A stretch of DNA of 64,000 bases from Candidatus Woesearchaeota archaeon (GTDB taxonomy: Archaea > Nanobdellota > Nanobdellia > SCGC-AAA011-G17 > GW2011-AR18). The stretch spans positions 15,485 to 79,484 of the forward strand of contig CAYFPK010000001.1 of the NCBI GenBank assembly GCA_964344975.1. Reading direction: 5' to 3'. The position numbers and the translations under genes were made by a program. A model generated the notes under the pieces. It searched no databases and was not told the DNA's origin. It was given only the letters and a program-made list of their open reading frames with translations. This document shows positions 388 to 60,963 of this stretch, piece by piece (position 1 is the first letter of the stretch; each line of letters opens with the position of its first letter).

Positions 388-1386
388 ATGAAAAAAATAC
401 AACAAACTGCAATCGTGGCAAGCGCAATTATCGCAGCAGCGCTAGTCTTCATTCTCCTAGGACAAGGAGCAAGTACAGGATTCGCAGTAGTAGACACACA
501 AGCACAACAAGCTTTACAGCAAATAGAACAAGATATTACAGAATTAGAGCAAGTAGGGCTAAGCACAGCATACGTAACAGACCTCTATGAAGAAGCACAA
601 AGAGCGTTCCAAGGAGAAGATCTACAATCACTACAAATACGGGCAAAGTTTCTCAACAAGACAGACCCACAAACCGCGCAAGAACTCTTTACGCTTGCAG
701 AAGAGTTAGCAAAAGGAGACAGTAAAGTTGGAGAAGACTACAACAAAGTTTTAGAGATCCAACAAGAGGTACGAGCACATAAAGAGCAAGCCTTAGCTCT
801 TTTTGACGAACTCCACCTTGCAAAGGCACAGATTGAGGCAGTAAACGATTCACAAGTAAACTTAAGCAACGTTTGGGACATCTACCTCACAGAAGAAGAA
901 AACTTTTACGGCGACCGGTTTGAGAACATTTCAGCCAACCTAGCAACAATTGAGGAAGAAATAATTCAAGCGCAACTAGAAGCCACACGTCTGCGAGTAT
1001 TGTACAAAGCCTCACAACGAACATTAAAGGCATTCATAGCAAGAAATTGGGCATTTATACTCTTAAGTCTTATAATTTTAGCAGCAGCAGCAGCAATCAT
1101 GAATAATGAATATATTATTAAAAAGCTAAAGAAAAAACAAAAAGAGAATCAACAAGAAGAGCGCATTCTACAAGAGCTACGCAAAAAAACACAAGAGGAG
1201 TACTACGGTAAAGGAACATTATCACGGAGAACCTATGAAGCAAGAAAAAAGAAGTACAAAGAACGTCAGCTACAAATAAAAGAGCAAGCACCAGTCATTG
1301 CAAGCAAGCTAGAAAAGAGAAGAACAAGTAGAAAATGGTACGCAAAAATAACAAAAAGCTTTATTAAACGAGAAAAAAAGAGCTAA
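388..1386 (+). CDS. hypothetical membrane-anchored coiled-coil protein
   Basis: N-terminal hydrophobic segment (IVASAIIAAALVFILLG), a long Q/E-rich coiled-coil region, a second TM (NWAFILLSLIILAAAAAIM) and a lysine-rich C-terminal tail. I recognise no catalytic motifs. Confidence 0.45.
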   Translation: MKKIQQTAIVASAIIAAALVFILLGQGASTGFAVVDTQAQQALQQIEQDITELEQVGLSTAYVTDLYEEAQRAFQGEDLQSLQIRAKFLNKTDPQTAQELFTLAEELAKGDSKVGEDYNKVLEIQQEVRAHKEQALALFDELHLAKAQIEAVNDSQVNLSNVWDIYLTEEENFYGDRFENISANLATIEEEIIQAQLEATRLRVLYKASQRTLKAFIARNWAFILLSLIILAAAAAIMNNEYIIKKLKKKQKENQQEERILQELRKKTQEEYYGKGTLSRRTYEARKKKYKERQLQIKEQAPVIASKLEKRRTSRKWYAKITKSFIKREKKS

Positions 1387-1389
1387 CAA

Positions 1390-2250
1390 ATGGTAAACAT
1401 CGCAGACATAACAAGCGAGATAAAAAAAGACCTCAAAAAGGGTGGAAAACTTGCCAAAGAACGCAAAAAACTAGTAAAAGCAGTCAACAAAGATAAAAAG
1501 AAAGGCAAAAAGTCGCGAGAATACATGTACACAGGCATTGAAGGATTCGATGCCCTTTTACACGACGGCATTCCAAAAAACGCAAGCATTGTAGTTGCAG
1601 GCGGTGCAGGTTCTGGCAAAACCATCATGTGCCTACAAATTATAAAAAATGCAATTGATGAGGGAAAACGCTGTTACTACATGAGTTTTGAAGAATCTCC
1701 AAAACACCTCAAAGAACATATGGAAGACTTTGGCTGGGACATAAAAAAAATAGAAAAAACAAAAAGGTTTTTAGTAGAACGAAAAAACCCGTATGAAATT
1801 ACTCGCTCTGTTGAAGCAATGCTTGAGGAAGCTAAGGGAGATCTGTTAATTAAGGTAGACCCATTTATTTTGCCAAAAAGTTTTAAACCAGACATTGTAG
1901 TCATTGATTCCCTAACAGCGATAGCATCTGCATTTGTCGGTAAAGAAGACTCATACAGGATTTACATTGAGCAATTATTTAGGTTCTTAGAAAAGATGGA
2001 TGCCACTTCATTTTTAATTTCAGAAACTGAACAAGTACCAAAAATATTTAGCACCACAGGCGTTGAAGAATTCTTAGCTGACGGAGTGGTAGTATTGTAT
2101 AGCCTCAAGAGAGGAAACATCAGAGAAAACGCAATTGAGGTTCTAAAACTACGTGGCGCCAAACATGAAAAAAAGATTGTGGCCATGCAAATCACTGAAG
2201 ACGGTGTCGTAATTTATCCTGAGCAGGAAGTCTTTGGCGGTATAGAATAA
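1390..2250 (+). CDS. KaiC/RadA-like RecA-superfamily ATPase
   Basis: Walker A VVAGGAGSGKT and Walker B-like hhhhD (PDIVVIDSLTAI). GIEGFDALLHDGIP is typical of archaeal KaiC-domain proteins. Lys-rich N-terminal extension. It could be FlaH-like, but no archaellum genes are nearby. Confidence 0.6.
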   Translation: MVNIADITSEIKKDLKKGGKLAKERKKLVKAVNKDKKKGKKSREYMYTGIEGFDALLHDGIPKNASIVVAGGAGSGKTIMCLQIIKNAIDEGKRCYYMSFEESPKHLKEHMEDFGWDIKKIEKTKRFLVERKNPYEITRSVEAMLEEAKGDLLIKVDPFILPKSFKPDIVVIDSLTAIASAFVGKEDSYRIYIEQLFRFLEKMDATSFLISETEQVPKIFSTTGVEEFLADGVVVLYSLKRGNIRENAIEVLKLRGAKHEKKIVAMQITEDGVVIYPEQEVFGGIE

Positions 2251-2400
2251 TTAAGATCTTCCTCTAAACAATAGTTTTCGCAAAATTTGCGAAAAAATCT
2301 CCAAAAATGCTTTAAAGAAAATAGAACCAGTCTCATCATGGAAGTATACAAAGAGCTTAGAAAAGAAAAACTTAAATACATACACATACATACACAGACC

Positions 2401-2631
2401 ATGGGAACAAAGACCATCTCAATCACAGAAGAAGCATATAGAATTTTACAATCCAAAAAAGAAAAAGAAGAAAGTTTCAGTAAAGTGATAGTTAGACTTT
2501 CAGGAAAGAAAAATCTAGCTTCTTTTTTTGGAGCATTAAGCGAAAAATCAGCTAAAGACCTCAAAAAAGAGGTAGAACTTGCAAGAAAAAGACATAAAAA
2601 AAGACACCTCAAAAGGATAAAAGAGCAATGA
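2401..2631 (+). CDS. VapB-type antitoxin (COG1753-like); longest-ORF start is 2287
   Basis: MGTKTISITEEAYRILQSKKEKEESFSKVI matches the small archaeal antitoxins paired with PIN toxins. Its stop overlaps the start of the PIN gene (ATGA at 2628-2631). The internal ATG at 2401 is the likelier start. Confidence 0.5.
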   Translation: MGTKTISITEEAYRILQSKKEKEESFSKVIVRLSGKKNLASFFGALSEKSAKDLKKEVELARKRHKKRHLKRIKEQ

Positions 2632-3023
2632 TTCTAGACACCTCATTTTTGATAGACCTTCTAAGAGGCAAGGATCAAAAAGTAAAACAAAAAGCAGAAG
2701 AATTAGATAGAGTCTTTACAACAAGAGAAGTCTCAGCCATAACAGTCATGGAGCTCTGGAGAGGCGCATGTAAAGCAGCAAAAACAAAAAAAGAAAAAGA
2801 AAAGGTAGATACCCTTTTACAATCTTTAGTAATTCATAATTTTAACCAAACAACAGCAAAATATGCTGCAGAAATAGAAGTAGACCTAGAAAAAAGAGGA
2901 GAAATGATTGATCTAGAAGATATCATGATAGCAGCAACAGCAAGAGCAACAAACAAAAAAATTCTAACAAGAAATAACAAACATTTCAAAAGAATACAAA
3001 ATATAACCATAGAAACATACTAA
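2628..3023 (+). CDS. vapC: PIN-domain toxin VapC
   Basis: MILDTSFLIDLL start with the conserved N-terminal Asp. ...ITVMEL... and ...IAATARATNKKILTRNNKHF are characteristic PIN acidic-residue positions. Start overlaps the antitoxin stop. Confidence 0.7.
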   Translation: MILDTSFLIDLLRGKDQKVKQKAEELDRVFTTREVSAITVMELWRGACKAAKTKKEKEKVDTLLQSLVIHNFNQTTAKYAAEIEVDLEKRGEMIDLEDIMIAATARATNKKILTRNNKHFKRIQNITIETY

Positions 3024-3026
3024 GTC

Positions 3027-3130
3027 TTTGGCGGCATTGTGCAAAACATTAACACGGCAGAATGTCTAGCACAAGCCATAAACAAAAACTACGAGTCGCT
3101 TAGGGTTGTAAGAAATTGGTTTAATTACTG
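3027..3130 (+). pseudogene. remnant of a geranylgeranyl reductase C-terminal region, paralogous to 13346..13440
   Basis: 3030..3085 is about 93% identical at nucleotide level to 13346..13401 of the intact reductase gene (ggcggcattgtgcaaaacattaac[a/g]cggcagaatgtctagcaca...). It translates to GGIVQNINTAECLAQAINKNYESL... versus GGIVQNINAAECLAQAIDQNKSYETL.... No start codon; ends in a poly-G tract. Confidence 0.55.
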
Positions 3131-3140
3131 GGGGGGGGGG
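3131..3140. repeat. G10 homopolymer tract
   Basis: Ten consecutive G on a plus strand that is otherwise markedly G-poor. It lies between the reductase remnant and the compositionally atypical Cache-HAMP gene block. Confidence 0.8.
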
Positions 3141-3182
3141 TCAATAATCTTTAAATAAGTAATTAATAATAATTCTTTAATA

Positions 3183-4349
3183 ATGAAACTAAGATTCCAA
3201 TTATTGATATTGCTATTGGTTGTATCCATTATTCACATTATTTCTTTCACTTATCTTTCTTACACTGATACGGTTGATATATTGTTAGATGACAGTATCG
3301 AGGATCTAGAACGAGGTGTTTTTTCTAAGACCAAGGATGTAAACTTTTTTCTTTCTGGTGCTCAAGATGAGGTTTTGTTTCTAAGCCAATCTCCAATTCT
3401 TAATAAATTGGTTAATTCCAAAGACGAAAGTGATAAAGAATCACTAAAAGCAGATTTGGAGAAAGAATTTCTTTCGTTTCTAAAGAATAAGGATAAATAC
3501 CTTCAAGTAAGATATATTGATGAAGATGGTCAGGAAACCGTACGTATTGATAGAGGTGGTGGAACACCACTTATTGTTGATGAAGGATTACAAAATAAAG
3601 GAGATAGGTACTATTTCACCGATTCAATTAGTCTTAAAGAAGGAGAGATTTTTATCTCCCCACTAGACCTTAATATAGAAGAAGGAGTTATAGAAAACAG
3701 AGGAACGGAGGAAGAACCAGCCTATGTTCCTGTTATAAGATATGCAACTCCCATTTTTGATAAAGCAGGGAAAAACAGAGGAATTGTCATCACTAATCTT
3801 CATGCAGATGAGATGTTAAGTAATTTACAAAAAGGAGTTGTTGGGGACTTATTTTTGTTGAATAAGGAAGGATTCTACTTAACCCATCCCGATTATTATA
3901 AACAGTGGGGGTTTATGTTTGATAACGATGAGAAATTACAAAAAGATCATCCAGTAATAGCAGACAAATTACTTACCTCCAGCAACTTTTTTGAGTCCGG
4001 AAAACTCGTTGTTGTTGAAAACATTGAAGTAAACGAAGAAACATCTTGGGTTTTAGCAAATATAATCTCCAAAGATATTATTATAAATCCTGTGAAAAAA
4101 TCTGCTACCAAACTAATATGGATTGCAACAGTGCTAGCTGTTCTGATAACTATACTATCTCTTTATCTATCCCACACATTAACAAAACCAATAGAACTGA
4201 TAGCAAAGTTAAGTAGAGGAGAAAAAGGAGTTGATATTAAGAAGTTTAAGAAGAAGAATGATGAAATTGGTGATATGGCAAGAGCATTTAGCAGGATGAG
4301 CGCTAGTATCAAGTTTTTATCACAAGATGAAAAGAGTAAGAAAAAATGA
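3183..4349 (+). CDS. Cache-like sensor / TM / HAMP protein with no methyl-accepting signalling domain
   Basis: N-terminal TM (LLILLLVVSIIHIISFTYL), a ~270 aa extracytoplasmic domain with a Cache-like pattern, a second TM (IWIATVLAVLITILSLYL), then a HAMP-like segment (TKPIELIAKLSRGEKGVDIKKF...IGDMARAFSRMSASIKFL). The ORF stops right after HAMP. TATA-like ctttaaataa at 3149-3158, 24 nt upstream of the ATG. Coding strand is T-rich, unlike other plus-strand genes. Confidence 0.5.
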   Translation: MKLRFQLLILLLVVSIIHIISFTYLSYTDTVDILLDDSIEDLERGVFSKTKDVNFFLSGAQDEVLFLSQSPILNKLVNSKDESDKESLKADLEKEFLSFLKNKDKYLQVRYIDEDGQETVRIDRGGGTPLIVDEGLQNKGDRYYFTDSISLKEGEIFISPLDLNIEEGVIENRGTEEEPAYVPVIRYATPIFDKAGKNRGIVITNLHADEMLSNLQKGVVGDLFLLNKEGFYLTHPDYYKQWGFMFDNDEKLQKDHPVIADKLLTSSNFFESGKLVVVENIEVNEETSWVLANIISKDIIINPVKKSATKLIWIATVLAVLITILSLYLSHTLTKPIELIAKLSRGEKGVDIKKFKKKNDEIGDMARAFSRMSASIKFLSQDEKSKKK

Positions 4350-4570
4350 CACTAAAAGATGAGATGATGAAAGTTGCAGTTGAATACATGGGACCAGCTG
4401 CAGAAAGGTTTATGAAAAGGCAGGTTAAGAGTCATTTAAACAAAACACTAACCACTATTTCTAAAGAAGATCTCCCTGAATTGGCGAAATGGATAGAAAT
4501 TTCTGCGGGTTTGCTTATAGATAAAGAAGAGGCAAAACAATTCAAACAAGAAATTAAAGCATTAGCATAG
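4346..4570 (+). CDS. hypothetical 74 aa protein
   Basis: Start overlaps the previous stop (ATGA at 4346-4349). No recognisable motif. Confidence 0.35.
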   Translation: MTLKDEMMKVAVEYMGPAAERFMKRQVKSHLNKTLTTISKEDLPELAKWIEISAGLLIDKEEAKQFKQEIKALA

Positions 4571-4748
4571 ATTTGTACCATCTGCGGATACGCCCCACCG
4601 ATTATACTTCTTTCAGTTAAGTATTCTCATTGATGTTCCAAGAAGGAAGGAGAATACTTTGCATTTAAAATACCTCCTTCAAACGAGCCGCACAAAAGCC
4701 AAAAAGCTTAAATAAGAAAAAAAACAGAAAAGAAAAAGAGGTGAAACC

Positions 4749-5048
4749 ATGACAATTATGGAAATTCTTCCAAACACAATAGCAGCACTAGCATCATTAA
4801 TAGCAAGCGTGCTTTTGATAAAATTAGCCCTAGCAATGAAAGGAGGCTCACTAAGCAGTGTAATGAATTATACCGTCATAGGAATCATCCTAGCAGTATG
4901 TCTACACGCGTTTTTTGAGTTAGCAGCACAAACAGGCCTAGTAAACGAAGCCATAGTATTCCCTGTTATGGGAACGTTACTAACAGTAGGGTCTTTAAGC
5001 TTCATAGTGGCAGGGTACAAAGGACTAAGAGTGTTTAAGGAAAAATGA
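4749..5048 (+). CDS. small membrane protein (2-3 TM)
   Basis: Three hydrophobic helices. SD-like aagaggtga 6 nt upstream of the ATG. Confidence 0.45.
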   Translation: MTIMEILPNTIAALASLIASVLLIKLALAMKGGSLSSVMNYTVIGIILAVCLHAFFELAAQTGLVNEAIVFPVMGTLLTVGSLSFIVAGYKGLRVFKEK

Positions 5049-5329
5049 CAAAAAAAGGGTACGAGGAGATCACACAAACCATTCTCAGTGAAAAGAGAGA
5101 AACGTTTGGAAATCTAGCGATAAAAGTAGCAAAAAGTGTAGATGGGCTACAAGTTAGCGAGCAGGGAAACCTCCAAGCAATCTCAGGCAATCCTAAAACC
5201 GTCTTAAACAAGTTACTAGATAGATTTGAGGAAATAGCAGGAAAACCATCCTCTACCGGCGCAAGATTAGCAATTGCAAAGATAAAAGCCAAGTACCCAA
5301 AACTAGACTTACCCAGAAGGTTGGCATAG
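5045..5329 (+). CDS. hypothetical protein
   Basis: ATGA overlap with the preceding gene at 5045-5048. No recognisable motif. Confidence 0.35.
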   Translation: MTKKGYEEITQTILSEKRETFGNLAIKVAKSVDGLQVSEQGNLQAISGNPKTVLNKLLDRFEEIAGKPSSTGARLAIAKIKAKYPKLDLPRRLA

Positions 5330-5569
5330 TTATTTCAACTTACGTAATTCTTTTTTCTTTTCTTTAAGAATTTTTGAAGCTTCATCAATTTGATTTTCAA
5401 GAACAGAGATATAATACTTCAAGTACTTCTTACGACTCATGGCTTCAACTGCATCCACGTCACACTCTAAAGCCCGATGTCGAGAAGAAGAAACAGACTT
5501 CTTACGAGAAACCTTCTTTTTCACCTTCGTACGTTTTTGAGCAGCTTTTTTCTTCCGCTTCAATACCAT
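5330..5569 (-). CDS. small basic coiled-coil protein
   Basis: 79 aa, Lys/Arg-rich N-terminus followed by a coiled-coil. No motif. Confidence 0.3.
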   Translation of the reverse strand: MVLKRKKKAAQKRTKVKKKVSRKKSVSSSRHRALECDVDAVEAMSRKKYLKYYISVLENQIDEASKILKEKKKELRKLK

Positions 5570-5600
5570 AAGGCAAAAAGGAGCTCAGGGCTATTTAAAG

Positions 5601-6134
5601 CTATTTATATTCAACAACAGAATCAACGAAAAGCCCAATTTCCTTAAGCAAACCTTTCTCAGTATCTCCTTGCAAGGCGGTAAAGACAACAGTCATATCT
5701 TGTTTTTTAAGTTTGTTCACCAGACTATGCACAAACTTACTCACGGCATCTTTTTGATTGTATATCAAAAGTGTAGACAAAGAATCAAAAATCAACCCTT
5801 TAAACTTCCCAGTTTTTAGTGCCTTGGTAATCACAATGGAGAGCTCAGTAAGAGCACCAGACGACTGCACAAACAAACAATTCTCCGCATCCTCTCGTGC
5901 TTGACCAGCTGATTTTGAAATCCCATCAATAAACAGAAATTTGTTCAAATCAATGTTAGATTTTTTAAAATCGCGACAAAGAGAATCATAGAGTTTATTC
6001 AAACTAACATACAATAGCGGCTCACAGGAAGAACAGAGCTGTTTTGAGATGGCAAGAATTTCTTTAGTATAAGCTTTATTAGAAACAACCAAAACAACAA
6101 TCTCTTCTTTAGCAACTACATCTTTCAAATTCAT
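5601..6134 (-). CDS. RecA/KaiC-like fold protein with degenerate P-loop
   Basis: Alternating beta-strand/helix pattern (VVLVVSN..., GLIFDSLSTLL, MTVVFTALQGD) but no GxxGxGK[ST]. Start ATGA-coupled to the CheC-like gene upstream on the same strand. Confidence 0.4.
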   Translation of the reverse strand: MNLKDVVAKEEIVVLVVSNKAYTKEILAISKQLCSSCEPLLYVSLNKLYDSLCRDFKKSNIDLNKFLFIDGISKSAGQAREDAENCLFVQSSGALTELSIVITKALKTGKFKGLIFDSLSTLLIYNQKDAVSKFVHSLVNKLKKQDMTVVFTALQGDTEKGLLKEIGLFVDSVVEYK

Positions 6135-6754
6135 TGTAATTTATGCTTTATAGCCTCAACAACTTTAGTTAACGATTCAATAGCAATAAGTAAAATAAAC
6201 TCACCCTCTACCTTCTGTCCAGGAACAGAAAAATGAGTCTTAAGCAAAATGGAATACTTTTCCTCAATACCAAGCAGTGCTAAATCAGCAAGAGATTCAC
6301 CAAACGTTGAGACAATACGTTCTTCAGAAGAGTTAATAGAAAGTTCCAAAAATTCAGTAAGAGAATGTACATAATTTTTAGTTAGCACATTACCCACCTC
6401 TTTTAAACGAATTTGATCCTCAGCACTCAGTACCTTTGTTGTTCCAGGTTTACGACCATTGACAAGATCTACCAAAAACAAGGCATTTTCGGTAGTATAG
6501 ACGATCAAAACGGTACCAGCAACATCACCGGTCAAAGAGGAATAGGTACCCACCACCATTTGCTGAGGACCACCAAGAACAGTAGGCAAATCCTTAACAG
6601 GCAACAAATAAATTTCAGGGGTAATAAGATTCACTTGTTGATCCAGCAAACGAGCAAGAGCCCCAGAAGCCTTACCCGCCCCAATGTTGGAAACTTCTTT
6701 TAAAGCATCTTGAAACTTATCCAGTTTAAAGCCTTTCAAAGCGAACCACCTCAC
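6131..6754 (-). CDS. cheC: CheC-family (CheC/CheX/FliY-like) chemotaxis phosphatase
   Basis: Two internally repeated segments carrying CheC signatures: ALKEVSNIGAGKASGALARLL and EDQIRLKEVGNVLTKNYVHSL (E...N motifs). Confidence 0.55.
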   Translation of the reverse strand: MRWFALKGFKLDKFQDALKEVSNIGAGKASGALARLLDQQVNLITPEIYLLPVKDLPTVLGGPQQMVVGTYSSLTGDVAGTVLIVYTTENALFLVDLVNGRKPGTTKVLSAEDQIRLKEVGNVLTKNYVHSLTEFLELSINSSEERIVSTFGESLADLALLGIEEKYSILLKTHFSVPGQKVEGEFILLIAIESLTKVVEAIKHKLQ

Positions 6755-6817
6755 TAAACATGATAAAACCTAAGGTGAAGTTCTCCTATTAAAGATTTAC
6801 GATTAAAAAAAAGAGGA

Positions 6818-7900
6818 ATGTTACCACTCAAAAAAACAACAAATAAACTAAGCAATATACTTAAAAAGACAAAACAAGAAGAACCACTCATGATTAAGGT
6901 ACTCATTGTTGACGATTCTATGTTCATGCGCAAAATGATTGCCGACATTTTGGAAGAAGATCATAGAATAAAAGTTATAGCAACAGCAAAAAATGGTTTT
7001 GAAGCGTTAGACAAGATCCAACAGTTAAAGCCTGATGTAGTTACACTTGACCTTGAAATGCCAAAAATATCTGGCCTTGACACATTATACGAAATAATGC
7101 GTACCAACCCCACGCCAACAGTCATAATTTCTGCATATTCTCCGATGGGATCAAAAGAAGCAATCCTTGCACTACAATACGGAGCAATTGACATAGTAGA
7201 AAAACCATCAGGCCCCATTTCTATGAACATCAGCACGATCAAAGAACAAATACTTGCCGCAGTAAAAGCTGCAGCAAACGCTAACCCACAGCAAGTGCAT
7301 AAATTTATCAAAAAAAAGATAGCAAGAAAAATAAAAGTAAAAAAAGAGATAATTCTCATTGCAGCATCGTCAGGGGGCCCACCAGCCATTGAAAGCATTT
7401 TAAAAACGTTTCCCAAACGATTTCCAATCCCCATCGTGATACTGCAACACATGCCAAGACATTTCACAAAAGCCTTTGCCGAACGCCTCAACCGTGTCTG
7501 CCATATAGCAGTAAAAGAAGCAGAGGACAACGAAAAACTCTGCAACGGCCAAGTATATATAGCCCCTGGTGGCAAGGATTTAACATTTGAAAAAAAAGTT
7601 ACCTCGGTCCGGATAAGGTTAACAGAGGCAAAGCAGCAGCTGACACCGAATATTGATACAACATTCAATTCAGCAGCACAAATATACAGAGAAAAAGTAC
7701 TTGCAATCATCCTCACTGGCATGGGTAGTGATGGAGCCCAAGGTGCACTACAACTAAAGAACAAAGGAGCACAAATACTCGCTCAAGATAAAAAAACAAG
7801 CACGGTGTTCGGTATGCCACAAGCAGTCGTCGCGTTAAACGCAGCTGACGAAGTAGTTTCTTTGCCAAACATGCCAGAAACAATGAATAAGTATTTATAA
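6818..7900 (+). CDS. cheB: chemotaxis response regulator protein-glutamate methylesterase CheB (receiver + methylesterase)
   Basis: Receiver domain (KVLIVDDSMFMRKMI...VVTLDLEMPKISGL). C-terminal methylesterase with the catalytic Ser in the AASSGGP context, plus ...HMPRHFTKAFAERL... and ...GMGSDGAQG.... The alternative ATG at 6890 (MIKVLIVDD) is a likelier true start. Confidence 0.75.
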   Translation: MLPLKKTTNKLSNILKKTKQEEPLMIKVLIVDDSMFMRKMIADILEEDHRIKVIATAKNGFEALDKIQQLKPDVVTLDLEMPKISGLDTLYEIMRTNPTPTVIISAYSPMGSKEAILALQYGAIDIVEKPSGPISMNISTIKEQILAAVKAAANANPQQVHKFIKKKIARKIKVKKEIILIAASSGGPPAIESILKTFPKRFPIPIVILQHMPRHFTKAFAERLNRVCHIAVKEAEDNEKLCNGQVYIAPGGKDLTFEKKVTSVRIRLTEAKQQLTPNIDTTFNSAAQIYREKVLAIILTGMGSDGAQGALQLKNKGAQILAQDKKTSTVFGMPQAVVALNAADEVVSLPNMPETMNKYL

Positions 7901-7922
7901 GAGAAAAGGAAGAAAAAGAAAG

Positions 7923-8609
7923 ATGGAAATAGCAAAACTGTACAAAAAAGAGTGTGCAAATTGTCTGCAAGTCATCAAGGTCACAGTAACAAAAATAAAG
8001 AACAAAAAAGGCAACAAGCAAACATTCGCGAACTTACGCAGAGCAGCACATACCTTAAAGAGTAGTTCTCTACAAATGCAATATTATAGCATGGGGTACC
8101 TCGCGCAACAGTTAGAGGATATCGCAAGATTATTGGCAGAAAAAAAGATAAAACCAACAAAAAAGATAGTTGCATTTCTCCACGATTTTTCAACAACGAT
8201 TGGGAAAGTAGAAAAAGCAATTCAAAGCAAAAAAACCCCTCAGATCAAGCCAGAACTCATCAAAAATTTAGACAGTATCCTTGGAAAAGCCCAAGAAAAG
8301 GGCTTCACAAAGGTTAAAAAGTTAAAAGAAACAGACGATTTAGAAAAAATTTACAAAGAAGAAACCAAAAAAGCAATTAACATGTTACTAACAGACATAG
8401 AAAGAGTAAAAAGAGAAAGCGACCTAGACCTCTTCATAGAAACAACCAACAAAGATTTAAAAAAAGAGATAGAAAGAATCGACGCAAAGATAAATTTAAA
8501 GATTGGCAAATACAACAAAGAAAACTTGGTAATAAAGGAAATAGAAAAAAACCATATTATCCTAAAAGGAGTAGATATATTTTATGAAAAAAATAAATTT
8601 TTTGACTAA
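7923..8609 (+). CDS. stand-alone HPt (CheA-P1-like histidine phosphotransfer) domain protein
   Basis: LRRAAHTLKSSSLQMQYYSMGYLAQQLEDIARLL matches the HPt/CheA-P1 phospho-histidine helix (aHtlKGss...G...lE). The rest is a K/E-rich coiled-coil. No kinase catalytic domain. Confidence 0.55.
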   Translation: MEIAKLYKKECANCLQVIKVTVTKIKNKKGNKQTFANLRRAAHTLKSSSLQMQYYSMGYLAQQLEDIARLLAEKKIKPTKKIVAFLHDFSTTIGKVEKAIQSKKTPQIKPELIKNLDSILGKAQEKGFTKVKKLKETDDLEKIYKEETKKAINMLLTDIERVKRESDLDLFIETTNKDLKKEIERIDAKINLKIGKYNKENLVIKEIEKNHIILKGVDIFYEKNKFFD

Positions 8610-8742
8610 AATCTATGCAAAATGCTCCAACAACACTAGACAAAATAAAGGCCTTAGAAAAAGTACCAAAAAACAGCTACAAGAGACCAAAGCGAAAACT
8701 ATTTAAACAAGTGTCCAATAAAATAGACAAAGAAACAAAAAA

Positions 8743-9273
8743 ATGGACAGCATAGCAAAACACTTCTACAAAGAACCTCAAAGAGAGTTCCACATAAGAG
8801 AATTAGCAAAAATAACAAAGAAATCCCCTTCAACAGTAGCAAAATACCTTCAAAAATGGGCAAAAGAAGGACTGTTAAAAGAAAAAAAGCAATACAACCA
8901 CAAGATATACAGAGCAAACACAGAAAGCGAAATATTCAAAGAAAAAAAAAGACACAATAATCTGCTCAACATAAGAAAATCAAACCTAATAGAGCACCTC
9001 AACAAGACATACAATCATCCCGAAGCAATCATCCTTTTTGGTTCATACGCAAAAGCAGAAAATACACAAAGAAGTGACATAGATTTACTTATAATCACAG
9101 AAAAGAAGAATAAAGAAGACCTTAAAAAGTTCGAAAAAAAACTAGAACACAACATACAAGTATTTACAAAAACAAAAAAGGAAATAGAAAAAACGAAAAA
9201 AGAAAATAAAGAGTTACTAAACAACTGGGTAAACGGTATAACCTTAAGTGGTCATTGGGAGTTATTTGAATGA
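8743..9273 (+). CDS. nucleotidyltransferase (MNT-type) with N-terminal wHTH
   Basis: GS-x9-DxD nucleotidyltransferase motif (ILFGSYAKAENTQRSDIDLLIIT). Confidence 0.6.
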   Translation: MDSIAKHFYKEPQREFHIRELAKITKKSPSTVAKYLQKWAKEGLLKEKKQYNHKIYRANTESEIFKEKKRHNNLLNIRKSNLIEHLNKTYNHPEAIILFGSYAKAENTQRSDIDLLIITEKKNKEDLKKFEKKLEHNIQVFTKTKKEIEKTKKENKELLNNWVNGITLSGHWELFE

Positions 9274-9698
9274 GATTCAAAAATTTTATAGAGAGTGGTC
9301 AAGTCAGAAAAGGACAAAAAGATATATCTCTAGCAAAATCACTTGTAAAAACTGCAAAACAAGATTTAGTATATTTACAAACAGTAAAAATAGATAAGGA
9401 ATCTGCAAGAAAAACAGTTACAAATTACTATGACACTTTACGAAGTTTACTCGAGGCAGAAACTGCCCTGAAAGGATACAAGGTATATTCCCATGAAGCC
9501 TTTACGTATTATCTAAAAGAGAAAGGAGAAGAAAATTTTGCAATAAAATTTGACAGGTTTAGAAAAATTAGAAACAAAATAAATTATTATGGCCAAGAAA
9601 TATCACCAGAGGAAGCAGAAGAATATTGTAAAAAAATCCAGAAATTTATTAAAGAAAAGATAGGACAAATAAACCTAGAAAGAAAAAATGCCCGTTAA
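9270..9698 (+). CDS. HEPN-domain protein (partner of the preceding nucleotidyltransferase)
   Basis: ATGA overlap with the upstream nucleotidyltransferase. Helical, with RFRKIRNKINYYG, a HEPN R-x4-6-H-like motif. Confidence 0.5.
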   Translation: MRFKNFIESGQVRKGQKDISLAKSLVKTAKQDLVYLQTVKIDKESARKTVTNYYDTLRSLLEAETALKGYKVYSHEAFTYYLKEKGEENFAIKFDRFRKIRNKINYYGQEISPEEAEEYCKKIQKFIKEKIGQINLERKNAR

Positions 9699-10587
9699 CC
9701 CAGGAATAGATTTCCAACTAGCCGAAGAAGAGTACAAAAACGCTTCAACGACCTTAGACAAGATTAAAGGCCTAGAAAAGATGTATAGGACTTGTCCCAA
9801 ACATAAAGGTTCAGAAAAATTATTACAGCAAATAAAAACAAAACTCACTAAACTCAAAGCCCAAGTTGAAAAACAAAGACAAACCAAAAAAGGCGGCGGA
9901 CATTCTATAACCGTTAAACGTGAAGGCGCAGCGCAAGTAATTTTTATGGGCACAACTAATGTAGGAAAAAGTACATTATTACAAGAACTCACTAACGCAA
10001 AACCAGACATTGCAGAGTACGAATTCACAACAACCATGCCAGAGGTGGGCAGCATGAACTACCACGGAATTCAAATCCAGTTAATAGAACTACCAGCGAT
10101 TCATGAAGGCTACGCAGATAAAGGCAACGGGCCGGCGTTTATGGCCATTGCAAGAAACGCAAAACTCATAGTAATAATCTTAGATGGAGAAAAACCATTA
10201 GCAAAACAATTAAGATTAATAAAAAAAGAATGCGACAACAGCTTTCTCAACATTGACAAAGCAATCATTACGATAACAAAAAAGTTCAAACGACCAAAAA
10301 CTAAACTACAGTTAGTTAAACCAAAACACCTCAAAGAAGCTATTTGGAAAAACCTCAACTTCATATACGTATTCACTAAACAACCACAAAAAGATAAAGA
10401 CTGGCCACCGGTACATCTCAAAAAAGGAAGTACAATTAAAGACTTAGCAAGTATAGTCCATAAAGATTTTCTAAAAAAATTCAAATTTGCAAAAGTGTGG
10501 GGCAAAAGCGTCAAACACAACGGCACCAATGCAGGACTCGACCATGTGTTAAAGCAAGGTGACGTGATAGAACTACACCTCAAATAA
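9688..10587 (+). CDS. DRG-family (Obg-like) GTPase with C-terminal TGS domain
   Basis: N-terminal KKGGGHSITVKREGAAQV then G1 GTTNVGKST, G2 FTT, and ELPAI. C-terminal TGS-like GDVIELH. The pattern matches developmentally regulated GTP-binding proteins. Confidence 0.7.
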   Translation: MPVNPGIDFQLAEEEYKNASTTLDKIKGLEKMYRTCPKHKGSEKLLQQIKTKLTKLKAQVEKQRQTKKGGGHSITVKREGAAQVIFMGTTNVGKSTLLQELTNAKPDIAEYEFTTTMPEVGSMNYHGIQIQLIELPAIHEGYADKGNGPAFMAIARNAKLIVIILDGEKPLAKQLRLIKKECDNSFLNIDKAIITITKKFKRPKTKLQLVKPKHLKEAIWKNLNFIYVFTKQPQKDKDWPPVHLKKGSTIKDLASIVHKDFLKKFKFAKVWGKSVKHNGTNAGLDHVLKQGDVIELHLK

Positions 10588-10629: not shown

Positions 10630-11025
10630 TTGTACAGCACAACCAAAAAGCTTAAATATATGGATAACGTTGTAGGATATAACATGAACGAAAAAGAAGA
10701 AATTTTAAGAGAAAACATGGAAGAATACACGCAATCCGCAAATAAAGCGTACAAAGAAGAAAAGTACAATACCGCAGTAACCCTCTTCTTTAAAGCAATA
10801 GCAGCAGCAAGTGACCTATACATTCTCAAAAAAGAAGGCAGAGCCCCATCATCACACCAACAAAGATTCAGAATAGCACAAGAAAAACACCCCAAAATAT
10901 ACAACATACTAGATAAAGATTTTTCTTTCTATCAAGACAGTTATAGTAAAAGAATGAATAAAGAAGCAGCAGAGGTACTAAAAGAAGATGCTCAAGAAAT
11001 TACAAAAGCAATTAAACAGCTATAA
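10630..11025 (+). CDS. HEPN-domain protein
   Basis: All-helical small protein immediately upstream of, and overlapping, a nucleotidyltransferase gene. Conserved H/R region SSHQQRFRI. Confidence 0.45.
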   Translation: MYSTTKKLKYMDNVVGYNMNEKEEILRENMEEYTQSANKAYKEEKYNTAVTLFFKAIAAASDLYILKKEGRAPSSHQQRFRIAQEKHPKIYNILDKDFSFYQDSYSKRMNKEAAEVLKEDAQEITKAIKQL

Positions 11026-11545
11026 AAAAGATGAATCAATCTTTGATATAGTCATATACGGATCTGCTACAAAAGGAGAGAAAAAGCCAAACGACATTGA
11101 CATAGTTATAATTTGCAACGAGGGAACACTCAGACAAAGACTAGAGAAGGCACAAGAAATAAAAAGAAAGATAGAAACAAACAAAAAGATAGATATAAAA
11201 ACAATACTTTGGCAAGAATTATTTCAAAAAGAGTTTTTCGCACGAGCAGGAATCTTTACTGCCGGTATAAGTTGCTTTGAGAATAAACCTTTCGCGAATA
11301 AGATTGGTTGCACAGCAGCAACAATATTCACCTATAACCTAAAAAATAAAACACATACAGAAAAAATAAAGTTTAACTATATACTAAGAGGCAGAAATAC
11401 AATAGGAATGATAAAAAGATTAAAGGGTACACATGTGGCACCAGGAGTAATCCAAATACCTACAGAAAACCAGAAAGAATTCGAAGAAGTACTTAAAAAA
11501 AATAAAATCCAATACAAAAAAAAGAATCACCTTATAGAAATGTGA
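10988..11545 (+). CDS. nucleotidyltransferase-domain protein
   Basis: IVIYGSATKGEKKPNDIDIVII gives the GS...DxD signature. Confidence 0.6.
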   Translation: MLKKLQKQLNSYKKDESIFDIVIYGSATKGEKKPNDIDIVIICNEGTLRQRLEKAQEIKRKIETNKKIDIKTILWQELFQKEFFARAGIFTAGISCFENKPFANKIGCTAATIFTYNLKNKTHTEKIKFNYILRGRNTIGMIKRLKGTHVAPGVIQIPTENQKEFEEVLKKNKIQYKKKNHLIEM

Positions 11546-11956: not shown

Positions 11957-12283
11957 ATGAAAACAACAACAGTATTTACCCAAGCACTAGGCAACTCACC
12001 AGTAATCCGAATATTAGATTTTCTCATAGAAGGCAGAGATTTAGATTATTCATTAACAGACATAGCAGAAAATGCGCACGTAAGCTGGAGCACATTACAC
12101 AGGGTATGGAACAATCTAATACAAACAAAGATGGTGAAACCAACACGAGAAATAGGAAGAGCAAAGTTATTCAAACTCAACCAAGAAAATCCAGCAGTAA
12201 AAAAGCTAATCATACTCTACGATACACTACTCTATCAAGCCACTCAAGAAAACATGGAAGAGATGACAATACAAGTAAAATGA
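11957..12283 (+). CDS. winged-helix transcriptional regulator
   Basis: VIRILDFLIEGRDLDYSLTDIAENAHVSWSTLHRVWNNL is a wHTH pattern. Confidence 0.5.
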   Translation: MKTTTVFTQALGNSPVIRILDFLIEGRDLDYSLTDIAENAHVSWSTLHRVWNNLIQTKMVKPTREIGRAKLFKLNQENPAVKKLIILYDTLLYQATQENMEEMTIQVK

Positions 12284-12537
12284 AAGCAGACAAATTTTGG
12301 GAAAAGGTATTGGCCATGGGAAGAATTCTTTCAGAGAAAGAAGCAGAAGAAACGCACAAAACATTATACGAGATGAAAAATGAAAAAGAGTCATTTTCAC
12401 AAGCCGTGCTACGACTAACAAGAAAAAAGAAAAGTGTCATGTCTCTGGAGGGTATAGTAAAAAACAATCCTGCATTCACCAAAGGATTAAAAAAAGCCGT
12501 TAAAGAGCGAGACAAAGGGATCCTACGGACATACTAA
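12280..12537 (+). CDS. hypothetical 85 aa protein, translationally coupled to the wHTH regulator
   Basis: ATGA overlap at 12280-12283. The longer 12106..12537 ORF in the track overlaps the regulator gene and is probably an artefact. Confidence 0.35.
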   Translation: MKADKFWEKVLAMGRILSEKEAEETHKTLYEMKNEKESFSQAVLRLTRKKKSVMSLEGIVKNNPAFTKGLKKAVKERDKGILRTY

Positions 12538-14598: not shown

Positions 14599-14796
14599 AT
14601 GGAAGCAAGAGTAACAAAATGGGGAAATTCAATGGGAGTCCTCTTATCAAAAAGGAAACTAGAAGAGTTAGGTATTAAAAAAGGAGATAAAATCGAAATC
14701 AACATAATCAGCAAAAAAAGAATAGATGGGTTCGGAATTTGTAAAGGGGCAAAGCCATTTAAAAGAGAAAAAGACGAACACGAAGATTTATGGTAA
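14599..14796 (+). CDS. AbrB/MazE/SpoVT-type antitoxin
   Basis: VTKWGNSMGVLLSKRKLEELGIKKGDKIEI is the swapped-hairpin AbrB-type motif (K-x-GNS). Confidence 0.6.
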   Translation: MEARVTKWGNSMGVLLSKRKLEELGIKKGDKIEINIISKKRIDGFGICKGAKPFKREKDEHEDLW

Positions 14797-14797
14797 A

Positions 14798-15184
14798 ATG
14801 GAATACATATTAGATAGCTATGCCTGGATTGAATATTTTAATGGGACAGAAGAGGGAAAAATAGTGAATAAACTCTTTAAAGATCCAAAAAAGAGATTCT
14901 ACACAGTAATTTGTTGTCTTGCTGAAATACAAGGTTGGGCTTTGAAAAATAAAGGAAATTTTGAAAACCTTTTCAGACTAATAAAAAGCAATTCGACAAT
15001 AATACAACTTACAGAGCAAGATTGGATTCAAGCAGCAAAAGAAAAGCACGAGCAAAGAAAAGCCTACAAAGATTTTGGATTAATAGATGCAACACTCATC
15101 ACAATACAAAAACAGATAAAGGCAAAAATAGTTTCAGGTGACAAACATTTCAAAGAGCAAAAAGGAGTGATCTTTCTGGCATGA
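14798..15184 (+). CDS. vapC: PIN-domain toxin VapC (longest ORF starts at 14726)
   Basis: MEYILDSYAWIEYF start immediately after the antitoxin TAA (14794-14796). GLIDATLITIQ...GDKHF are PIN acidic positions. Confidence 0.65.
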   Translation: MEYILDSYAWIEYFNGTEEGKIVNKLFKDPKKRFYTVICCLAEIQGWALKNKGNFENLFRLIKSNSTIIQLTEQDWIQAAKEKHEQRKAYKDFGLIDATLITIQKQIKAKIVSGDKHFKEQKGVIFLA

Positions 15185-16382: not shown

Positions 16383-17561
16383 ATGTTCAACAAAAGAGGT
16401 GCAGGTGAAGGCAAAGCGATAGCCTCCCTAATTATGGTCATTGCATTAGCAATCGCCTTATACGTAATTTTAATCCCCCCTGAAGAACGTCAAGCACTTT
16501 TAGAAGGGGACATCACAGACGAAATAAAAGACACAGTAAAAAGCCTAGAACTCCTCTCAGAAGCACCTGGACAACTTTCACCTAGGCAAGAGACAGGCAC
16601 TGTTCATAGCATTAACGCAATCAACTTATTCATTAAAACCGAACCAGAGATAATCAGACTCGCAGACCATTTGCAAGTAAAAAGATCTTTAGTAACAAAA
16701 TCATCCCCCACGTTAAGATTCGACGCAAACAACTTAAACAATTTAAACAAGGCAAGCCTGTACTTCACCACACAAGAACCGCAAGGCACATTAAAACTTA
16801 AAATTAACGGTGAACAGTTTTACAGTAAAGAGCTTACAGGTGGCGTAAAAGTTATTGACATACCAACCATATACATACAAGAAACAAACCAGATACAGCT
16901 CACTGCATCATCCCCAGGACTGGCATTTTGGAGAACAAACGAATTTAACTTACAAGACGTGGGAGTTCGGTTAGAATACGAAAGAATTAACGCAAAAGAA
17001 ACACGCACGTTCCAAATTGCGCAGCAAGAGTTAGAATCATTAACAGAGGCAGACCTCAAGTATACCATGGTCTGTAATGCGCCGCTACAACAAAATACAG
17101 CAAACTTAAGAATTATCCTCAACGACTTAGAAATTATTGACAGCCAAATAAGATGTGTAAGCACAGAGCAAATAATTGAACTAGAAAAAAATCACTTAAG
17201 ACAGGGCCAAAACGAGGTAACTTTCATCATTGATGACGGTGAGTTCGCATTCAACCAGCTCAAGTTAGAAACAAAGTCTGATGAGATAACCCATCCCACC
17301 TACTTCTTCACTGTAAGTAGCAAAGAAATGCAAAGAATAGAGGAGCTTAACAAAGAGGCAATCCTAGAAATTTTCTTAGAGGATAACAACAAAGCAAAAA
17401 ACGCACGGCTAAACATTAACGACGAAACTATTTTCATGACCACACAAGAAAGCAAGTTCACCTACGATATAACAGACCTGCTAGATACAGGTACAAACTT
17501 CATCCGCATCCAACCAACAACGACATTCACGATGGTAGGATTGAAACTCACAATAGAATGA
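16383..17561 (+). CDS. N-terminally anchored extracytoplasmic protein
   Basis: Short basic N-terminus (MFNKRGAGEGK) followed by a hydrophobic helix (AIASLIMVIALAIALYVILI), then a ~350 aa hydrophilic beta-rich domain. No known motif. Confidence 0.45.
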   Translation: MFNKRGAGEGKAIASLIMVIALAIALYVILIPPEERQALLEGDITDEIKDTVKSLELLSEAPGQLSPRQETGTVHSINAINLFIKTEPEIIRLADHLQVKRSLVTKSSPTLRFDANNLNNLNKASLYFTTQEPQGTLKLKINGEQFYSKELTGGVKVIDIPTIYIQETNQIQLTASSPGLAFWRTNEFNLQDVGVRLEYERINAKETRTFQIAQQELESLTEADLKYTMVCNAPLQQNTANLRIILNDLEIIDSQIRCVSTEQIIELEKNHLRQGQNEVTFIIDDGEFAFNQLKLETKSDEITHPTYFFTVSSKEMQRIEELNKEAILEIFLEDNNKAKNARLNINDETIFMTTQESKFTYDITDLLDTGTNFIRIQPTTTFTMVGLKLTIE

Positions 17562-18958: not shown

Positions 18959-18989
18959 CATTTTTAAAAACAAAAAACAACAACCAAGT

Positions 18990-42594: not shown

Positions 42595-42718
42595 CGCCGC
42601 GGGCAGGATTTGAACCTACATATCCGTGAGGAAACCGGCTCTCTCGAACTCCGTTGGGAGTAGAAAGCTAAGCTTTCGTATTCAAGGCCGGCGCAATACC
42701 AGATTATGCGACCGCGGC
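42595..42718 (-). tRNA. tRNA-Ser (anticodon UGA) with a ~40-nt intron at the canonical 37/38 position
   Basis: Manual fold of the minus strand: acceptor GCCGCGG/CCGCGGC, D-arm, anticodon stem CCGGC/GCCGG with loop CUUGAA[intron]A (anticodon UGA), 15-nt variable arm with UCC/GGA stem (type II tRNA), T-arm GUAGG-UUCAAAU-CCUGC, discriminator G. Intron about 42641..42680. Needs confirmation with tRNAscan-SE / BHB-motif search. Confidence 0.6.
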
Positions 42719-60908: not shown

Positions 60909-60934
60909 GTCTAAATGCAAAATCGGCGAAATGG

Positions 60935-60943
60935 TTATATAAA
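60935..60943. promoter_or_regulatory. palindromic TATA box (ttatataaa) between divergent membrane protein A and the Trm5-like gene
   Basis: 20 nt upstream of ATG 60964 (plus) and 26 nt upstream of ATG 60908 (minus). Confidence 0.45.
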
Positions 60944-60963
60944 GCTTGTGATAACATAAACAG

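Follow-up and report, generated by a model that had tools for sequence, protein, structure and literature searches.

Chemotaxis operons of the archaeal and Firmicute type, known from Halobacterium salinarum, the Thermococcales and Bacillus subtilis, combine cheY, cheB, cheA, cheR, cheD, cheC and cheW with genes for methyl-accepting chemotaxis proteins (MCPs). In the present study we analysed a stretch of 64,000 nucleotides (nt), hereafter called the window, from a Candidatus Woesearchaeota archaeon (assembly GCA_964344975.1, contig CAYFPK010000001.1, positions 15,485 to 79,484), the first 9 kb of which contain an incomplete set of such genes. Its CheB and CheC are clear orthologs that have kept their catalytic residues, and the succession of cheB and a gene for a CheA-P1-type Hpt protein parallels the adjacency of cheB and cheA. 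Whereas relatives possess the full canonical set, the window has no CheA kinase core, CheW, CheR, CheD, CheY or MCP. The lineage also adds to the described operons an extra gene for a P1-type Hpt protein, placed between cheB and cheA, and a unit of CheC and an inactivated KaiC-like protein (iKaiC), which in one relative is joined by KaiC. We consider it probable, at about 0.68, that the region is one end of a chemotaxis locus typical of its lineage that was cut by a rearrangement, and that its genes were recently orphaned.

Hpt domains detached from a kinase core have precedents in split and multi-P1 forms of CheA. The P1 domain of Rhodobacter sphaeroides CheA3 is phosphorylated in trans by CheA4, and Pseudomonas ChpA carries multiple Hpt domains. 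The window likewise has a P1-type five-helix Hpt domain apart from a kinase core; it differs in having no kinase at all, and the CheA proteins of relatives retain their own P1 domain, so that the Hpt protein is an addition rather than a split-off part. As to the KaiC-like proteins, Makarova, Galperin and Koonin reportedly treated KaiC-like ATPases and iKaiC as archaeal signalling hubs in 2017. The iKaiC of the window has the same RecA/KaiC fold with lost Walker A motif and glutamates as the iKaiC systems described to date, and lies near receiver genes and an active KaiC-like ATPase. Both iKaiC-receiver fusions and the idea that KaiC-like ATPases act as archaeal signalling hubs have been published (Galperin et al., 2018, PMC5847659). 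The cases described to date are fusions (iKaiC-REC, REC-DUF835, MEDS), in contrast to the window protein, which is a stand-alone iKaiC of about 175 amino acids (aa) coupled to CheC. ArlH (FlaH) is, like the ATPase encoded at 1390-2250 of the window, a single-domain KaiC-like ATPase of similar size; its NCBIfam model gave weak matches (5e-14 for 1390-2250, 1.4e-3 for iKaiC; 52.6 bits against a cut-off of 215), and the window shows no arlB, arlI or arlJ genes in Pfam scans. HEPN/MNT toxin-antitoxin cassettes are the source of the last 68 codons of a chimeric gene in the window and of the next 32 nt; the chimera holds only the C-terminal third of the nucleotidyltransferase, and an intact, different cassette stands at 8743-9698.

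CheB, CheC, Hpt and KaiC-like proteins are known families, and the window itself represents ordinary erosion of a locus. In the literature searched, Makarova et al. 2017 being outside it, we found no description of the CheC-iKaiC pair, of the extra Hpt gene between cheB and cheA, of the chimera, or of the KaiC-like ATPase that one relative has in its che operon.

Chemotaxis genes of the window

The chemotaxis-type genes of the window encode CheB, CheC, a CheA-P1-type Hpt domain, an active KaiC-like ATPase, iKaiC and a Cache-transmembrane-HAMP protein. Except for the last, which is treated below, they are listed here together with the parts of the Hpt open reading frame (ORF).

1390 to 2250, plus strand: active single-domain KaiC-like ATPase, 286 aa (PF06745, 1e-53)
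5601 to 6134, minus strand: iKaiC, 177 aa, with a DUF7504-like inactivated KaiC/RecA fold (PF06745, 5e-10, 39.6 bits; DUF7504, 1e-8, 36.1 bits; both above cut-off)
6131 to 6754, minus strand: CheC-like phosphatase, 207 aa (NF041093, 1.3e-28; Thermotoga maritima CheC 1XKR, 2.5e-20)
6818 to 7900, plus strand: CheB, receiver and methylesterase (NF001965, 2.5e-118; 395 bits against a cut-off of 293)
7923 to 8609, plus strand: Hpt ORF, 228 aa (PF01627, 6.3e-9; 36.4 bits against a cut-off of 24.6)
7923 to 8300, plus strand: Hpt domain 1 of this ORF (residues 1 to about 126), CheA-P1 type, with His43 (PF01627, family alignment, AlphaFold)
8337 to 8401, plus strand: helix A of an otherwise missing second Hpt domain (residues 139-160), without the phospho-accepting His (alignment to tandem-Hpt proteins)
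8402 to 8615, plus strand: fragment of an MNT-type nucleotidyltransferase gene (residues about 161 to 228), 88% nt identity to positions 10342-10555 of contig L031

Pfam profiles were run on 67 ORFs of the window, comprising almost every ORF of 110 aa or more that was judged to be a gene and the smaller ORFs of the che region. Among these 67 ORFs, no match was obtained for the CheA core, CheW, CheR, CheD, CheY or MCPsignal, for PF01584 and PF00015, or for CheF and the archaellum families. Then, 29 proteins from the che loci of relatives were used as tblastn queries against all six frames of the 64 kb, in which matches were confined to CheC, the receiver of CheB and the P1 region, and no che pseudogene fragments were seen. 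The CheA proteins of three relatives matched the window solely at the P1 region (7938-8351), their kinase core (dimerisation, HATPase_c and P5/CheW-like parts) not being found there, and the CheW and MCP proteins of loci L008, L039 and L030 gave nothing under an E value of 0.01. CheY and CheR were likewise not found in the window, whose sole receiver domain is that of CheB. The original prediction had assigned the CheB, CheC, Hpt, Cache-HAMP and KaiC-like genes from the sequence, including the Walker A/B ATPase at 1390-2250, and had stated that the CheA core, CheW, CheR, CheD and MCP domains are absent from the 64 kb. The Pfam and NCBIfam searches upheld all of these assignments, that of the ATPase by its PF06745 match and motifs, and the absences were confirmed by the Pfam scan together with the six-frame tblastn search.

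CheB apparently is intact and, judged from its alignment with Salmonella CheB 1A2O, holds every residue required for activity, as do Hpt domain 1, CheC site 1 and the KaiC-like ATPase. The catalytic triad is conserved as Ser (ASSGG), His (QHMP) and Asp (GMGSDG), and the receiver pocket is kept with D35/D36 (VDDS), the Asp in TLDLEMP and the Lys in VEKP. The true start codon is probably the ATG at 6890. The closest CheB homologs are only 48% identical, and a scan of a genome collection (species representatives) with CheB returned distant loci only, at no more than 42% identity. In contrast to the relatives, the cheB gene of the window has no cheY upstream.

A recombination junction within the Hpt gene

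The 228-aa protein encoded immediately after CheB had been described as a stand-alone protein in which a CheA-P1-like Hpt helix is the only recognisable feature. The P1-like Hpt assignment stood, as shown by the PF01627 match; the remainder of the description did not, the last ~68 residues being derived from a nucleotidyltransferase. Among 5.8 billion proteins searched, there was no full-length homolog of the ORF, and 20 nucleotidyltransferases of about 182 aa matched its last third. Residues 166-228 of the chimera are 89% identical in amino acids to residues 120-182 of the 182-aa nucleotidyltransferase P0002. The intact gene for the 182-aa enzyme sits in a sister contig, L031, and its 3′ end corresponds to L031 10342-10555. 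Region 8402-8615 of the window runs from the last ~68 codons of the nucleotidyltransferase gene through its stop codon into the partner HEPN gene, of which it includes the first 32 nt; the fragment is in frame and provides the stop codon of the chimeric ORF. The chimera holds only the equivalents of residues 115-182, and it cannot act as a nucleotidyltransferase because the catalytic G-S motif, which precedes DxD, is gone.

The junction between the Hpt and nucleotidyltransferase parts was recovered in five assemblies from three runs, namely three MEGAHIT-style ENA assemblies, each from a different run, and two Logan assemblies, with 99.98-100% identity to the window across the junction. It is not an assembly error.

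To place the Hpt part, residues 1-165 were searched by phmmer against 1.8 billion representatives. Giant multi-Hpt proteins dominated the matches, together with small proteins that have either a single Hpt domain (112-150 aa, 30-39% identity) or tandem Hpt domains (235-283 aa, aligned over about 150 residues). The motif AHTLKSSSxQMGxYxVGYL is common to the small Hpt proteins, and His43 is invariant in their alignment. A hidden Markov model (HMM) of the family also found unannotated small genes for proteins of 134 aa in L006, 135 aa in L008 and 112 aa in L029, and additionally matched the P1 domains of the neighbouring CheA in L006 and L008. A metagenome scan with a six-sequence Hpt alignment returned one unrelated bacterial hybrid-kinase locus (L035). 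Residues 139-160 of the chimera, where the HMM has a weak second match (residues 139-165), align with helix A of domain 2 in the tandem-Hpt proteins P0247, P0250, P0252 and P0274, and the region of the second His is occupied by nucleotidyltransferase sequence. Compared with the tandem-Hpt family, the chimera matches in domain 1 and in its place after cheB, whereas its domain 2 ends after helix A and no cheA follows. Because the position of the gene is consistent in relatives, the Hpt part of the chimera appears, from position and sequence homology, to be the counterpart of the gene that separates cheB from cheA.

Domain 1 is intact, and is modelled with confidence as a five-helix P1-like domain. 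In the AlphaFold model of the chimera, the mean predicted local distance difference test (pLDDT) score per ten-residue block is 63-85 over residues 1-100 and mostly above 70, and the helices of the domain span residues 2-26, 32-51, 55-72, 80-101 and 110-131. The phospho-accepting His lies on helix B of a four-helix bundle with a fifth helix, as in CheA-P1-type domains, and the Pfam score is above threshold. The top matches of the model in the PDB are CheA P1 domains, from R. sphaeroides CheA3 (3KYJ, template modelling score 0.81), Salmonella (1I5N, 0.8) and T. maritima (1TQG). The tail derived from the nucleotidyltransferase is modelled poorly, with pLDDT below 50 from residue 190. Its ratio of nonsynonymous to synonymous substitution rates (dN/dS) against the intact copy is 0.18, as compared with 0.03-0.04 for KaiC and the GTPase described below, in a short tail whose value confounds two lineages; this would be compatible with some relaxation of constraint.

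Complete loci in relatives

The gene context was compared across 12 related loci. Distant relatives, with protein identities of 47-67%, carry complete loci built from two units, CheY(n)-CheB-Hpt-CheA, in which Hpt is single or tandem, and CheC-iKaiC. Both units are found together with CheW, MCP and CheR in L008 and L039, and L008 also has CheD. In L008 (GCA_003358065.1), KaiC (545 aa), iKaiC and CheC lie on one strand, and CheY, CheY and CheB are divergent; CheB is followed by CheW, MCP, CheR, CheD, a CheX-like protein, CheC, CheA and the 135-aa Hpt protein, and a TGS-domain GTPase stands at the far end. Identities of L008 proteins to those of the window are 63% for KaiC, 50% for iKaiC, 53% for CheC, 47% for CheB and 30% for the GTPase. 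In L039 the order is CheA, Hpt (129 aa), CheB, CheY, CheY, CheW and MCP, next CheR, and then CheY, a CheX-like protein, CheC and iKaiC.

In other relatives, L036 and L037 show three CheY genes, CheB, a tandem Hpt protein of 283 aa, CheA and CheC; L038 shows Hpt (123 aa), CheA and CheC; and L006 runs CheY-CheY-CheB-Hpt (134 aa)-CheA and, after further genes, CheD-CheR. L030, from a metagenome-assembled genome (MAG) of Woesearchaeota, carries CheY, CheC, CheY-CheD, MCP, CheW, CheY, CheB, two CheR genes, CheC and iKaiC, with large KaiC-like genes nearby. L029 is the closest relative for CheC (67%) and iKaiC (66%), and has CheR, Hpt (112 aa) and CheY on one strand and CheY, a CheX-like protein, CheC and iKaiC on the other. 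The window keeps the junction between iKaiC-CheC and CheB-Hpt that is seen in the relatives' locus. Within ±10 kb of the che clusters in L006, L008, L029, L030, L036 and L039, neither CheF (PF04283) nor ArlCDE is annotated. Several genes of about 190-220 aa in the che loci of relatives gave weak CheX/FliM-like matches.

Origin of the incomplete gene set

The incompleteness is due to a rearrangement, whichever of deletion and import of a fragment took place. In the reading that we favour, this event would have removed, or never brought in, everything beyond helix A of Hpt domain 2. At that point the Hpt gene is fused, with the frame kept, to the final ~68 codons of a gene for an MNT-type nucleotidyltransferase, which would have belonged to a HEPN/MNT cassette beside the conserved GTPase gene. 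The cheY genes are absent too, and KaiC lies inverted and 3.3 kb off, behind a VapBC cassette and the Cache-HAMP gene. The earlier suggestion of a decaying or incomplete chemotaxis locus is thus supported, with a recombination junction inside the Hpt gene and the full set present in relatives in the same order. Since the kinase core, coupling protein, receptor, methyltransferase and CheY are absent from the locus, CheB, CheC, Hpt domain 1, iKaiC and KaiC would be unable to form a chemotaxis pathway by themselves, and would be either recently orphaned or dependent on genes elsewhere in the genome.

Several points weigh against a recently orphaned end of a larger locus. Deletion of an ancestral locus and import of a fragment both fit. 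CheB is without signs of decay, and the KaiC motifs, His43 of the Hpt domain and site 1 of CheC are likewise intact, so that either the loss was very recent or the genes are still in use; other che genes may be present elsewhere in the genome. Moreover, no CheA, CheW or MCP gene was seen within ±10 kb in L029, and a 71-kb JGI contig carries CheC-iKaiC without other che genes, adjoining a PAS protein. It may therefore be normal for this lineage to have che sets that are dispersed or reduced.

These points lead to the alternative of a split locus, in which CheB, CheC-iKaiC and the one-domain Hpt protein would serve a working chemotaxis system whose cheA, cheW, cheR, cheY, MCP and archaellum genes lie elsewhere. 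The full intactness of CheB, CheC site 1, His43 and KaiC would be explained, relatives in some cases have che genes scattered across more than 10 kb or lacking in the 20 kb that were seen, and Woesearchaeota MAGs with expressed cheABCD and archaellin genes have been reported (PMC11606122). We nevertheless regard a split locus as unlikely, if still worth serious consideration: in complete relatives CheB and CheA are adjacent with only Hpt between them, whereas here this adjacency is broken by a recombination junction, and a second cluster would be expected to come with a CheB and a CheC of its own. It also speaks against a split locus that DPANN genomes are small and seldom retain duplicates. 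A chimeric join made by the assembler at repeated nucleotidyltransferase sequence might be suspected in a region rich in paralogous nucleotidyltransferase/HEPN cassettes, where contigs from two strains both break off at one homologous position. Given that the identical junction recurs in the three ENA and two Logan assemblies, we find this hardly credible; furthermore, the fragment is only 88% identical to the intact copy and therefore belongs to a locus of its own and did not arise from mis-joining the same reads.

It has also been speculated that a KaiC-like autokinase replaces CheA. In such a reduced, CheA-independent phosphorelay, made up of Hpt, CheB, CheC, iKaiC and the KaiC-like ATPase, either autophosphorylation of KaiC or an unrelated kinase would feed the Hpt domain. 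The in-frame fusion and the intactness of the retained genes are in keeping with it, as are the conserved CheC-iKaiC pair standing alone on the 71-kb contig, the iKaiC of L040, which lies without CheC beside PAS and histidine-kinase genes, and the partnership of iKaiC domains with receiver domains known in archaea (PMC5847659). However, KaiC, iKaiC and CheC in L008, and iKaiC and CheC in L039, stand beside CheA and the full che set, and exactly this reduced set occurs in none of the other loci examined. CheB would have no substrate where MCPs are lacking. KaiC-type proteins autophosphorylate on Ser/Thr and not on His or Asp, and we know of no route from KaiC to the histidine of an Hpt domain. 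In addition, the second Hpt domain was destroyed by a junction with an unrelated fragment, which looks accidental, and the resulting tail has the low model confidence noted above. We therefore consider such a relay very improbable. The replacement of CheA by KaiC was not borne out either; because the orthologous KaiC, iKaiC and CheC adjoin a normal CheA-CheW-MCP-CheR-CheD set in relatives, KaiC and iKaiC accompany CheA and do not replace it. The case is cautionary, in that an exotic-looking "minimal phosphorelay" is accounted for by one rearrangement, which can be placed to within a few bases, and an apparent stand-alone signalling ORF turns out to be a fusion of two unrelated gene fragments.

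The CheC-iKaiC pair and the KaiC-like ATPase

The CheC and iKaiC genes overlap by ATGA, indicative of translational coupling, and the predicted coupling of CheC to a degenerate protein of the RecA/KaiC fold was upheld by this overlap and the profile matches. In iKaiC, the P-loop is replaced by V-S-N-K-A-Y-T and SFEES by SLNK. The family alignment showed that the Walker A motif and the catalytic EE are lost throughout and that D117-S118 is invariantly kept; iKaiC cannot bind ATP or hydrolyse it in the canonical manner. The iKaiC homologs number 98, and every one with a source organism name is from Candidatus Woesearchaeota. CheC lies directly upstream of iKaiC in six of the seven loci examined, L040 being the exception.

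In CheC, the NCBIfam score is 100 bits against an equivalog cut-off of 250. Site 1 (D-x3-E-x2-N-x22-P) is complete; in site 2, E and N are kept, and Ile stands for D/S and Glu for Pro. Site 2 is degenerate in all CheC relatives paired with iKaiC.

The KaiC-like ATPase has a Walker A motif (GGAGSGKT), a Walker B motif (VVIDS) and the SFEES glutamates. It is termed KaiC-like rather than circadian KaiC because it has one domain only, bona fide KaiC having two in tandem, and the NCBIfam KaiC model gave 138 bits against a cut-off of 408. Its ortholog in L008 is the KaiC domain of the 545-aa protein (the 63% identity extends over 249 aa); the window gene is inverted relative to L008. Upstream of it, an ORF at 388-1386 with transmembrane and coiled-coil regions is in the same reading frame, one stop codon lying between the two. 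We considered whether this ORF is the detached N-terminal half of the 545-aa KaiC of L008; there was no similarity, and in the sister contig the 286-aa KaiC is a separate gene. Homology to the sister contig starts at 1344, within the 3′ end of the ORF, so that the ORF is apparently joined onto the promoter region of the sister's KaiC.

By analogy with R. sphaeroides CheA3-P1 and CheA4, the extra P1-type Hpt protein of complete loci would be phosphorylated in trans by the CheA core and would diversify phosphotransfer to several CheY and CheB receivers. CheC-iKaiC, again by analogy, would tether a phosphatase of phosphorylated CheY to a KaiC-type ring. These lineage features are candidates for the way in which KaiC-family proteins plug into archaeal two-component signalling, and for the route of phosphorylated CheY to the archaellum in lineages without CheF and ArlCDE. 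A bolder proposal would be that the retained genes form a lineage-specific module of a single-site CheC coupled to iKaiC, an active KaiC-like ATPase and a trans-acting P1 Hpt protein, with CheC-iKaiC as the adaptor between phospho-CheY and a KaiC-type ring, such as ArlH at the motor of the archaellum, in Woesearchaeota che loci that show no CheF, reduced in the window to a CheA-independent relay. In this entirety we consider the proposal improbable.

A variable interval rich in toxin-antitoxin cassettes

The genes that bound the che region of the window are as follows.

2287 to 3023, plus strand: VapB-VapC toxin-antitoxin pair, between KaiC and the che remnant (VAPB_antitox, 5e-14; PIN, 2.4e-16; VapC NF047863, 2.6e-25)
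8743 to 9698, plus strand: winged helix-turn-helix (wHTH) nucleotidyltransferase, 176 aa, and a 142-aa partner (Polbeta, 1.2e-11; NTP_transf_2, 7e-11)
9688 to 10587, plus strand: DRG/Obg-type GTPase with a TGS domain (MMR_HSR1, 2e-18; TGS, 7e-15)

The 176-aa nucleotidyltransferase is only 29% identical to the one that gave the fragment in the chimera. Its 142-aa partner has no significant Pfam match, and the label HEPN-like is given by position only. A contig of the same sequencing project, the sister contig (L031/L033), shares KaiC and the GTPase with the window. The KaiC genes are 88% identical in nt (synonymous divergence, dS, 0.71), and the GTPase genes are 95.6% identical in nt and 100% in aa over 220 residues, which makes the GTPase gene a conserved anchor on the right of the variable interval; in L008, too, the che locus has a homologous GTPase at its flank. 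Between KaiC and the GTPase, about 19 kb of the sister contig are unrelated to the 7.4 kb of the window, except for the 214-nt nucleotidyltransferase fragment, and no CheB, CheC, iKaiC, CheA, CheW, CheR or MCP gene was seen in the sister contig. The V4R genes of the sister contig and L008 were compared for signs that the two have a common ancestral end on the right, and no homology was detectable.

In L031, a cassette of the 182-aa nucleotidyltransferase and a 163-aa HEPN protein lies directly upstream of the GTPase gene. On either side of this cassette lies a 48-nt direct repeat (9914-9961 and 10999-11046, 85% identical) of the GTPase gene's 5′ end, which looks like the footprint of a cassette insertion. 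The window has one copy of the 48-mer only (9683-9732), and at that site it carries the different cassette of the 176-aa nucleotidyltransferase and its 142-aa partner; the end of the che remnant therefore coincides exactly with the place where toxin-antitoxin cassettes were exchanged. The interval between KaiC and the GTPase is a hot spot of gene flux, and the region illustrates how toxin-antitoxin cassettes mark the boundaries of gene flux in DPANN genomes.

Contigs L002 and L031, which come from different strains and different runs, end at the same position of the homologous GTPase gene, corresponding to window 10348, which suggests a branch in the assembly graph caused by strain-level mosaicism. 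The first 15 kb of the window are dense in toxin-antitoxin genes, with VapBC, two wHTH-nucleotidyltransferase genes (one with the 142-aa partner), a lone VapB and a PIN protein (2287-3023, 8743-9698, 10988-11545, about 12280-12537 and 14726-15184). The cassettes at 2287-3023 and 8743-9698 lie in local dips of G+C content (0.29-0.32).

The Cache-HAMP gene and neighbouring small ORFs

Between the VapBC pair and iKaiC lie the remaining genes of the interval.

3183 to 4349, plus strand: membrane sensor with a transmembrane helix, a Cache-type periplasmic domain, a second transmembrane helix, HAMP and a Lys-rich tail (HK_sensor_dom_bact, 6.9e-17)
4749 to 5329, plus strand: pair of small genes for a 99-aa membrane protein and then a 94-aa soluble protein, with no Pfam family for either
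5330 to 5569, minus strand: Lys-rich ORF of 79 aa, downstream of iKaiC on the same strand, resembling a 59-aa gene of L006

The Cache-HAMP protein has weaker matches to dCache_1 (2.3e-10) and HAMP (0.005), both below cut-off, and stops eight residues past HAMP. No output module (MCPsignal, or HisKA with HATPase_c) follows HAMP, and there is no downstream match to an output domain; a 74-aa ORF (4346-4570) overlaps the gene by ATGA. The gene had been suspected of being truncated. This was not borne out by the comparison, in which the same output-less architecture of sensor, transmembrane helix, HAMP and Lys-rich tail recurred in a 400-aa protein of L033 (23-25% identity along almost the entire protein, E 2e-7 to 2e-10) and in one of 328 aa whose gene adjoins the L006 che cluster; because all three proteins end in a Lys-rich tail just past HAMP, truncation is unlikely. 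We also considered descent from the dCache-HAMP-MCP protein of L039 or from MCPs of other relatives, and tblastn revealed no similarity to the coding region. Recent acquisition of the segment, the other suggestion made, is plausible because the whole interval from KaiC to the GTPase differs between two close strains. The gene is not demonstrably part of the che remnant.

The G+C content of the gene is 0.32-0.36 compared with a mean of 0.39 for the window. As for the atypical composition noted in the original prediction, the low A-over-T skew is present, but it is not peculiar to this gene, as the minus-strand CheC and iKaiC genes are alike in it; in our reading the skew follows lysine content and not origin. 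A compositional case for horizontal acquisition of the gene was accordingly judged uninformative. The G10 tract reported before the gene is actually a G11 tract (3130-3140), which is closely followed by a TTTAAATA box and lies 43 nt before the start codon. It is the sole run of at least nine G in the 64 kb, where 0.07 would be expected. There was no evidence of phase variation at this site, since three independent assemblies agree in the length of the tract.

The 94-aa protein shares 49% identity (E 8e-23) with the product of a 96-aa gene inside the che cluster of L039; this L039 gene follows a gene for a 138-aa transmembrane protein. The 79-aa ORF matches the 59-aa gene after cheR in L006 with 47-51% identity over 32-35 aa (tblastn, E 6e-8 and 2e-6). 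These small ORFs (4749-5329 and 5330-5569) may be unrecognised che-associated components.

Other features of the window

Other genes of the window encode an eRF1-family protein, aIF2-alpha, GINS, SRP54/FtsY, Rpb4 and the ribosomal proteins S13, S4 and S11, and together with an intron-containing tRNA they mark the DNA as archaeal. The names borne by iKaiC homologs and the low G+C content (0.39) point, with moderate confidence, to a DPANN-type host that is most likely a member of the Woesearchaeota. Two runs of large consecutive ORFs have no Pfam match at 1e-4, one at 52554-61121 on the minus strand (982, 459, 623 and 812 aa) and the other at 16383-19853 on the plus strand (392, 466 and 303 aa); they may encode lineage-specific surface or structural proteins. 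An ORF of 470 aa at 62449-63861 (minus strand) encodes both an intein splicing domain and a P-loop NTPase region resembling Zot. ARAGORN reported no tRNA in the window and missed an intron-containing tRNA of 124 nt at 42595-42718 (minus strand), which was detected by Rfam with 44 bits.

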